Part shown: positions 5,035 to 5,927 of the stretch, one piece after another
Layout of the letters: the number at the start of each line of letters is the position of its first letter
Numbering within the stretch: the stretch's first letter is position 1
DNA from: a virus
Taxonomy: Duplodnaviria; Heunggongvirae; Uroviricota; Caudoviricetes
Direction: 5' to 3' (one strand)
DNA length: 44,371 nt
Virus record (IMG/VR): IMGVR_UViG_2627854098_000001
Translations under genes and position numbers: made by a program
Notes under the pieces: model-generated
Told to the model about the DNA's origin: nothing
Seen by the model: the letters and a program-made list of their open reading frames with translations, nothing else
Database searches by the model: none

Positions 5035-5574
5035 TTAACGAATAGTGTCGTTACTTTGAAGTACAGCAAATGCCATTAATACTTCTAAAGTATATCTTCT
5101 ATAAAATTTAACAAAACCAACATAGAAAACATAGACGAAGAAAAAGCTAAGCATTATTGAAAGTAAACTATAAAGATAATCACTATGAGTACATAATCGA
5201 TAAATAAAGGTTGGAACTGATACCCAAAATGAAATTATAAAGATTAAACATATGTTTCTGCAAAAACCATATAATGCAACATAGTTTTGAATTTTTGTTT
5301 GATGTTGTTTTGAAAACTCATAAACATAATGATATGCCAATCTGAAGAGATCATCATCAAGTCCGTTTTTATCTTGTAATAATTGGCGATTTGTTATGAA
5401 CTTTTTCTCATAACCTTCTTTGATCATTAACCATGTTGTATTAGCTAAATGAAATGGTAGAGATTGAGAATAACATAGTTTTTGTGTTATAAAATCCCAT
5501 AGTATTATTGGACATAATACGCATTTGATTATGCGATTCTTTATTTTTGTTTTTTTTATCAGCGCTTCTCTCAT
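5035..5574 (-). CDS. hypothetical membrane protein, AT-rich (179 aa)
   Basis: ATG start; strongly hydrophobic C-terminal half; markedly AT-rich. Confidence 0.5.
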   Translation of the reverse strand: MREALIKKTKIKNRIIKCVLCPIILWDFITQKLCYSQSLPFHLANTTWLMIKEGYEKKFITNRQLLQDKNGLDDDLFRLAYHYVYEFSKQHQTKIQNYVALYGFCRNICLIFIISFWVSVPTFIYRLCTHSDYLYSLLSIMLSFFFVYVFYVGFVKFYRRYTLEVLMAFAVLQSNDTIR

Positions 5575-5585
5575 CGCATGATGGG

Positions 5586-5927
5586 CTACAAATGCTTTCT
5601 GAGGTATCTATCAATTTTTTTAAATAGATATTTGGAAGGATATCCTAATTCTTTATTCATGTATTTTTCGATAAAAAATGCTGACGTGATAGAAATAAAA
5701 TGTCCAGCTATATAAGATATAATAACTATTGAAGCGTAGTTCAAAATGCCAAAGATTTGACTTTGACCTCTGAGCAATTCACTTAAGTCAATAACAATAT
5801 CTAGATCGAATGTCAAACCACAGAAATACATTAATAGGATAAAAAAACCACCTGGTATTAAATATCCAAGAAAGTCATAGAATGAGAATGGATTTTGATT
5901 CATTGTTGCTCTCCAATAATTTTTCAA
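5586..5927 (-). CDS. hypothetical membrane protein, AT-rich (113 aa)
   Basis: Hydrophobic segments (LIPGGFFILLMYFCGL, IVIISYIAGHFISI); AT-rich; 11 bp upstream of the next ORF in a different frame. Confidence 0.5.
   Translation of the reverse strand: MKNYWRATMNQNPFSFYDFLGYLIPGGFFILLMYFCGLTFDLDIVIDLSELLRGQSQIFGILNYASIVIISYIAGHFISITSAFFIEKYMNKELGYPSKYLFKKIDRYLRKHL

Follow-up and report, generated by a model that had tools for sequence, protein, structure and literature searches.

The 44,371-nt stretch of viral DNA analyzed here (IMG/VR record IMGVR_UViG_2627854098_000001, class Caudoviricetes), which we refer to as the window, is a prophage whose sequence matches the chromosome of avian-pathogenic Escherichia coli (APEC) strain IMT5155 at 100% over 1777 nt. 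Its source is IMT5155 or an identical sequence, and the allele discussed below is the IMT5155 copy. Our subject is an AT-rich membrane-protein gene on the minus strand, between yfdR and an excisionase (xis) gene. An earlier note, made from the sequence alone, had read this place as a pair of genes for small hydrophobic proteins in a variable slot of an operon like that of the prophage CPS-53, and much of that description of the locus holds. Two open reading frames (ORFs) of 179 and 113 codons lie where the note put them, in different frames and separated by the 11 nt from 5575 to 5585. Their GC content is 0.26-0.30, whereas the neighbors yfdR and xis have ~0.46 and the window as a whole has 0.52; hydropathy finds two hydrophobic segments in each product. 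At the local composition, 179 stop-free codons would arise by chance with a probability of 3e-7; such a length is far beyond chance, and the sequence is therefore genuinely coding. The note is also right about the flanks, with yfdP, yfdQ, and the HD-domain gene yfdR upstream, the excisionase gene downstream, and the gene co-oriented with this early-left operon, which does resemble that of CPS-53, where the Escherichia coli K-12 cluster runs yfdQ-yfdR-yfdS-yfdT (PMC4776307). The prophage further carries genes for a P27-family small terminase subunit, an HK97-family prohead protease, and a Mu-type baseplate.

The pair itself has to be given up. The stretch from 5035 to 5903 is a single gene, a copy of the 288-aa prophage gene WP_001075212.1, and the two ORFs are an illusion created by two +1 slips in poly-A runs. 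In strain UTI89 the equivalent is a single 867-nt ORF (L001:6249-7115, minus strand), and in a DNA alignment the window gene differs from it only by two inserted A's, both in homopolymers, one extending A6 to A7 and the other A7 to A8, 64 nt apart (Table 1). The effect of these insertions is to spread one coding sequence over three frames, which carry residues 1-96, 97-115, and 116-288, respectively. The N-terminal fragment holds the conserved NPFSFYDFLGYLIPGG motif and the first two transmembrane (TM) helices, the C-terminal fragment holds the cytoplasmic domain with TM3 and TM4, and the stretch between the tracts falls within a 57-aa ORF (5441-5614). The 113-aa product had also been drawn too long. 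The native start is the ATG at 5903, which follows the Shine-Dalgarno sequence GGAGAG at 5914-5909 and encodes a methionine that is invariant across homologs, so that the fragment has 105 residues and the TTG at 5927 opens the maximal ORF only.

Comparison across genomes leaves the split arrangement isolated. Among 181 complete E. coli genomes that contain the 91-nt stretch spanning both tracts, both insertions occur in one (IMT5155) and a single insertion in two; the 89-nt intact form is present in 37 other listed genomes, and the identity bands of the remaining 141 are consistent with the intact form. The A6/A7 configuration is thus found in ~98% of complete E. coli genomes, as well as in UTI89 and all 20 IMG/VR viral contigs compared, and the exact intact protein is encoded on at least 1000 contigs. 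Homologs with 97 to 48% identity are all single ORFs of 277-288 aa and span seven genera (Escherichia, Salmonella, Citrobacter, Klebsiella, Enterobacter, Cronobacter, and Hafnia), and down to 27% identity the homologs are still encoded by one ORF, of ~265-320 aa. Against an allele of 78% identity, the ratio of nonsynonymous to synonymous substitution rates (dN/dS) is ~0.23. The two ORFs are therefore not conserved as ORFs in close relatives, which carry a single 288-aa ORF, and this is the outcome that the earlier note had itself named as telling against a gene pair. The NCBI Prokaryotic Genome Annotation Pipeline (PGAP) labels the IMT5155 locus "hypothetical protein, frameshifted," and the gene is also flagged as frameshifted in strains DE17 and VTB96815v. 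Public annotation thus already records the locus as a pseudogene, and the element is not of a new kind. The gene is a pseudogene in this window, and the frameshifted copy probably makes no functional product. The best joint explanation, to which we give a probability of about 0.7, is that of a single gene broken by slippage, whose intact form would be a four-TM inner-membrane protein of a widespread family and would act in competition between phages or other mobile elements.

Table 1. Coordinates of the features at and around the yfdR-xis slot (positions in the window)
Feature	Position	Strand	Description
ISCro1 (IS66-family insertion sequence) in prophage integrase	1273..3970	-	Splits the integrase gene into fragments 947-1272 and 3971-4826; same insertion in DE17
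Excisionase gene, WP_001331174.1	4787..4993	-	Conserved downstream anchor of slot; phrog_2917, E 8e-45
Maximal ORF 1	5035-5574	-	179 aa
C-terminal fragment ORF, 179 aa	5035..5574	-	6 aberrant residues (MREALI) plus native residues 116-288
Ancestral single-gene footprint	5035..5903	-	869 nt here; 288 codons plus stop in intact alleles; from UTI89 comparison
Homopolymer tract 2	5550..5557	-	A8 on coding strand (T8 on plus strand); A7 in intact alleles; second +1 frameshift
Inter-tract stretch	5558..5614	-	Native residues 97-115 (LIDTSESICSPSCDERSAD) in third frame; variable linker of the family
Maximal ORF 2	5586-5927	-	113 aa; TTG start at 5927
N-terminal fragment ORF, 105 aa	5586..5903	-	Native residues 1-96 plus 9 out-of-frame residues (IDRYLRKHL)
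Homopolymer tract 1	5615..5621	-	A7 on coding strand (T7 on plus strand); A6 in intact alleles; first +1 frameshift
Spacer from yfdR to gene	5904..6011	-	108 nt, AT-rich; carries the ribosome-binding site
yfdR, HD-domain 5'-deoxynucleotidase	6012..6536	-	Conserved upstream anchor of slot

The hydrophobic character that had been noticed in the two ORFs belongs to one polytopic protein. Hydropathy places four TM segments in the intact sequence at residues ~12-30, 59-77, 216-234, and 246-264, the positive-inside rule puts both termini in the cytoplasm, and a lysine/arginine-rich cytoplasmic loop of ~130 aa is predicted between TM2 and TM3. The intact protein is accordingly a predicted four-helix inner-membrane protein. 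An AlphaFold2 model was obtained with high scores (predicted local distance difference test [pLDDT] of 89.2, predicted template modeling score [pTM] of 0.87) and contains long helices at residues 8-31, 52-86, 198-237, and 243-287; a structural search with this model gave no match among solved folds. Across 62 diverse family members, 15 positions are invariant (F6, Y9, D10, F11, Y14, G18, Y64, G67, S74, E79, H191, G212, R215, K265, and E273) and five more are nearly so (H68, E195, H200, K203, and N206). In the predicted topology, the charged residues of this set sit at or near cytoplasmic helix ends, which suggests that they may form a binding, gating, or catalytic site.

The earlier note had recognized no family for these products. 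This stands for Pfam, where the intact protein has no match at E<=1 and none was found for the 62 relatives, and falls for PHROGs, where the protein matches phrog_12528 (function unknown) over its full length (E 8e-174, profile positions 1-288 of 288). A profile search recovered 943 clusters (at 50% identity) at E<=1e-3 and 206 at E<=1e-30, and the best 150 matches listed are nearly all full-length, at ~260-340 aa. The genome loci of the family come from Gammaproteobacteria, Bacteroidota, Bacillota, Chloroflexota, Acidobacteriota, and others. The family is therefore large, and it is under purifying selection. The superinfection exclusion protein SieB (PF14163), likewise a small prophage-encoded inner-membrane protein, was considered as a possible relative and rejected: the only Pfam match was that of the N-terminal fragment at a chance-level E of 0.19, and hhalign of the family profile against bona fide SieB returned a probability of 0.4%.

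The only known family matched repeatedly is Csx27. The PADLOC Csx27 model PDLC01605 aligns with residues 6-268 of the intact protein over profile positions 4-188 of 206 (E 1.4e-5) and matches 52 of the 62 family members, with a best E of 2.2e-10, matches to which the compositional bias of TM segments may contribute. The corresponding NCBIfam model, NF040557, matches 11 of the 62 at E<=0.01 (best E 4.5e-6). The two profile libraries thus match from the N-terminal motif onward, and four TM helices are predicted in both families; the prophage protein differs in its extra length of ~80 residues and in the cytoplasmic insert that separates its TM2 from TM3. From these profile matches, the relation to Csx27 is probably one of remote homology and not of membership. 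The genomic setting of Csx27 was not found to go with it. The annotated neighbors in the window are prophage genes only, with no cas13b or CRISPR array among them, and no cas gene appears among the listed families and annotations of neighbors in the related loci examined.

The slot between yfdR and xis is variable, as had been proposed. A comparison of related yfdPQR prophages found other genes in the same place, either a 120-aa gene and a small, frameshifted ORF (~71 codons) or a set of three, namely a 120-aa gene, a DUF551 gene, and a 331-aa gene. The family itself recurs in similar positions. In E. coli prophages, an allele of 78% identity has yfdR on one side and a xis-like gene on the other; one of 50% identity lies directly upstream of xis (DUF4224) and the integrase gene in Enterobacter prophages and Klebsiella phage P7641, and in P2-like phages a homolog of 42% identity is flanked by gpA (replication) and gpQ (portal). 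The gene has a higher AT content than its flanks in 75 of 76 genome loci, with a median difference of 8.9 points. No conserved partner emerged: BLAST clustering of 841 neighbor ORFs from 79 genome loci gave no cluster present in more than 4 loci, no neighbor was conserved over 77 chromosomal loci of many phyla, and the 135 immediate neighbors annotated with Pfam and PADLOC are a mixture of integrases, type I restriction-modification subunits, AbiEii-like ATPases, and many unknowns. These comparisons show the gene to be AT-rich foreign mobile cargo, which unrelated temperate phages carry in variable slots of the lysogeny module.

The P2 locus deserves separate mention because it is a recognized anti-phage hotspot (Rousset et al. 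2022, PMC9122126). Table S5B of that study lists a system no. 3, described as "DUF4760," with "1 TM in protein 1, 4 TM in protein 2" and 1102 occurrences. Protein 2 of this system is the gpA-gpQ homolog itself, which is full-length, has 42% identity to the intact protein over 287 columns (E 2e-64), and shares its N-terminal and NYVALYGFCRN motifs and its four TM helices; like the window gene, its gene is AT-rich and travels as cargo in a diversity slot of temperate phages. The window gene differs in occupying the yfdR-xis slot of a lambdoid-type early-left operon instead of gpA-gpQ, and the window copy is frameshifted. DUF4760 was tried as a general partner of the family and discarded, as a tblastn search matched only P2-like loci (L144-L150, L166, L167, and L173), with none in the window or other loci. 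In one of these loci, that of Escherichia phage vB_EcoM-705R2 (ON470623.1), the DUF4760 gene at L173:4464-4958 (plus strand) is unannotated and a reverse-strand ORF at 4537-4857 is annotated instead. The same Table S5B lists a system no. 34 (Lactamase_B + 4TM), whose 163-aa four-TM protein starts "...SSYNIFNNLFPGALFIYLL", reminiscent of the family motif NPFSFYDFLGYLIPGGFFILL; this protein may be a shorter relative of the family, nearer to Csx27 in size.

What the intact protein might do is best approached through these slots. Because the gene sits in phage diversity slots that include a validated defense hotspot, it is conceivable, at somewhat below even odds, that the intact protein would have a part in the rivalry among phages or other mobile elements and would work from the inner membrane, either by keeping incoming DNA out or by serving as a pore or effector of abortive infection. 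In this it would be comparable to the membrane accessory proteins Csx27 and Csx28 or to RexB of phage lambda. With RexB and Csx28-type effectors the analogy is one of working principle only, a polytopic inner-membrane protein in a lysogeny or defense locus; the absence of any Pfam or structural match speaks for no sequence or fold relationship, and the window gene, with yfdR and xis as its neighbors, lacks a RexA-like or Cas13b-like sensor partner. The superinfection-exclusion or abortive-infection role suggested in the earlier note is likewise plausible for the intact gene by analogy, because its 42% homolog lies in the P2 gpA-gpQ anti-phage hotspot. TM proteins of defense systems are generally regarded as suicide effectors (PMC9122126), and in P4 satellites most of the unannotated hotspot genes that were tested proved defensive (PMC13586616). 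A more specific version, which we regard as doubtful, is that the family would be a Csx27-related inner-membrane system that works on its own against phages or blocks DNA entry, that occupies diversity slots in several mutually unrelated groups of temperate phages (P2 gpA-gpQ, lambdoid yfdR-xis, and Enterobacter and Klebsiella xis-int), and that is spread across bacterial phyla; a minor addition to it would make the poly-A tracts an on/off switch.

A number of observations weigh against a role in competition. The kinship with Csx27 is distant, since NF040557 scores only 14.9 bits for the UTI89 allele and 16.2 bits for P0001, compared to a curated equivalog cutoff of 65 bits. Csx27 itself, which accompanies type VI-B1 CRISPR-Cas systems as a membrane accessory protein, acted on Cas13b in E. 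coli as a repressor and not as an enhancer, by a mechanism that is unexplained (Smargon et al., bioRxiv 10.1101/092577). A consensus scan of the 108-nt spacer ahead of the gene gave no sigma-70-like promoter match, so that the gene may be read from the repressible early-left operon and not in the lysogen, a poor fit to superinfection exclusion. System no. 3 lies outside the main text of PMC9122126 and appears in its supplement only in the catalogue table, with no test recorded; the literature searched holds no mention of WP_001075212 or of a DUF4760 function, and the one mention of DUF4760 elsewhere is unrelated. The P2 hotspot also holds nondefense cargo, such as partition systems and toxins (PMC9122126). 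In other phyla, the neighbors of family members are heterogeneous and include ribonucleotide reductase and glycosyltransferases, with some epimerases. Finally, the gene is dispensable in several lineages, as its recurrent frameshift alleles (see below) demonstrate.

The main rival is that the intact protein serves no defense or exclusion function and instead has another membrane role, be it as a channel for transport or for the uptake of DNA, as an enzyme of lysogenic conversion that modifies the envelope or lipids, or in phage development early in lytic growth. We consider this fairly unlikely overall, although several observations speak for it. The way in which invariant residues (His, Asp, Glu, Arg, and Lys) cluster around the predicted cytoplasmic helix ends is reminiscent of a binding or catalytic site. 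The Csx27 family was reportedly extended in 2019 by Makarova and colleagues, who according to reviews predicted its members to be single-stranded DNA (ssDNA) channels linked to natural transformation. Glycosyltransferases and epimerases occur among some chromosomal neighbors, and the gene is co-oriented with the early-left operon, with no promoter of its own detected. On the other side, the neighbors scanned include no conserved competence, ubiquitin-like, WYL, or polysaccharide-pathway partner, and the gene recurs in phage diversity slots, the P2 hotspot included, and is AT-rich foreign cargo in nearly all of its genome loci.

The gene is broken in the IMT5155 lineage, and the nature of its two insertions bears on how this came about. 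The A8 of tract 2 is a real, inherited mutation of an avian-pathogenic lineage, because it is shared with DE17 (from a duck in China) and VTB96815v (from a chicken in South Africa) and its 153-aa product is encoded on 43 contigs. DE17 has the same ISCro1 insertion in its integrase gene, and VTB96815v has the same truncated integrase fragment. Among complete E. coli genomes, only IMT5155 has the A7 of tract 1. The same slip arose on a separate occasion in Logan sample ERR4138927, where the integrase gene is intact and tract 2 is A7. In IMT5155 it represents either a real slip, the second in this gene, or a homopolymer error of sequencing. On 19 contigs, tract 2 has a -1 allele (A6, its product ending in "...SADKKQK" before the stop). 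There are thus at least four independent frameshift alleles, written as the lengths of tracts 1 and 2: (6,8) on 43 contigs, (6,6) on 19 contigs, (7,7) in ERR4138927, and (7,8) in IMT5155, compared with the intact (6,7) on at least 1000; these counts are of contigs and not of independent events. Runs of at least 6 bases occur at 4.5 per kb in the gene and at 1.0 per kb in the window. Since alleles of both tracts appear in separate samples, the poly-A runs are recurrent slippage sites, and neutral decay, counterselection, or phase variation may be the cause of their recurrence.

Of these, phase variation would make the tracts a reversible contingency switch, and a related idea would have transcriptional slippage at the A8 restore some full-length product. 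We regard both as very unlikely. Independent alleles at both tracts and in both directions speak for a switch. On the other side, tracts of 6 to 7 A's are short for efficient slippage, the great majority of complete genomes have A6/A7, no reversion was observed, the allele counts do not represent separate events, and the frameshifted lineage is also integrase-dead, which fits simple decay.

It is highly improbable that both insertions are assembly errors and that the gene is intact in the actual IMT5155 chromosome, although the pattern of indels gave some reason to suspect a sequencing artifact. Over the ~33 kb of prophage common to UTI89, all five indels of the window are +1 homopolymer extensions, and of its four differences from the sister strain DE17 in a 6.8-kb comparison, three are gene-breaking homopolymer indels, which hit the IS66 transposase gene tnpC, the integrase fragment, and the membrane-protein gene. 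This suggests some assembly error in IMT5155, in a gene that is in addition rich in runs. For the A8 tract, a pure artifact is nonetheless rejected: two relatives, each sequenced independently, share it along with the IS insertion or its truncated integrase, and many contigs encode its product. At least one frameshift is therefore real, and the gene is broken whether or not the A7 is. A genuine two-gene operon that makes the 105/113-aa and 179-aa proteins separately as a split membrane system is likewise highly improbable: both ORFs are open with two TM helices apiece, the break sits in the least conserved linker of the family, and 11 nt between the stop and the next ATG would make some reinitiation conceivable, but a reading of the sequence found no Shine-Dalgarno sequence ahead of that ATG, 19 native residues are lost to the third frame, the arrangement is confined to one of the 181 complete genomes, homologs down to 27% identity are without exception one ORF, and PGAP calls the gene a pseudogene.

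The other +1 homopolymer insertions relative to UTI89 are T2 to T3 at 4250 (in the integrase fragment), A6 to A7 at 13246, and T5 to T6 at 36269, of which the one at 4250 is not in DE17. All three may be assembly errors of IMT5155 and may give rise to further spurious split ORFs in the window.

The integrase gene of the prophage is split by a copy of ISCro1, and the prophage is therefore locked in and decaying in the IMT5155/DE17 lineage. The flanking sequences of this copy overlap by 8 bp when placed on UTI89, which we take for a target-site duplication, and its transposase is frameshifted by the loss of 1 nt at 2618 (C2 to C1). A second copy, at 38786-41484, is identical to the intact copy in DE17. 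Adjoining it in the window is a 1.9-kb segment (36838-38776) with a tail-fiber gene and a tail-fiber-assembly gene, which is inverted relative to UTI89, where it adjoins a truncated recombinase gene. This looks like a host-range segment of the Gin/Pin invertible type whose invertase may have been disrupted. Just outside the integrase gene, a three-gene block (window 1-955 plus upstream sequence; L001:3006-4876) encodes a 303-aa hypothetical protein, a STAS-like (DUF4325) protein, and a 199/205-aa hypothetical protein. It is kept in UTI89, IMT5155, DE17, and ERR4138927 and could be another cargo or defense module at the attachment site.

For the window itself, then, the result is a correction: what appeared to be an operon is a frameshifted pseudogene in a decaying prophage with an IS-interrupted integrase. 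Its wider value lies in the family, a very common and conserved four-TM protein found where temperate phages keep their competition genes. This protein has a confident predicted structure without a solved relative, and its sole detectable kinship is with the mechanistically unexplained Csx27. If the family does constitute a stand-alone system, it would be an abundant defense family that is missing from current catalogues and would provide the first experimental handle on Csx27-type proteins.

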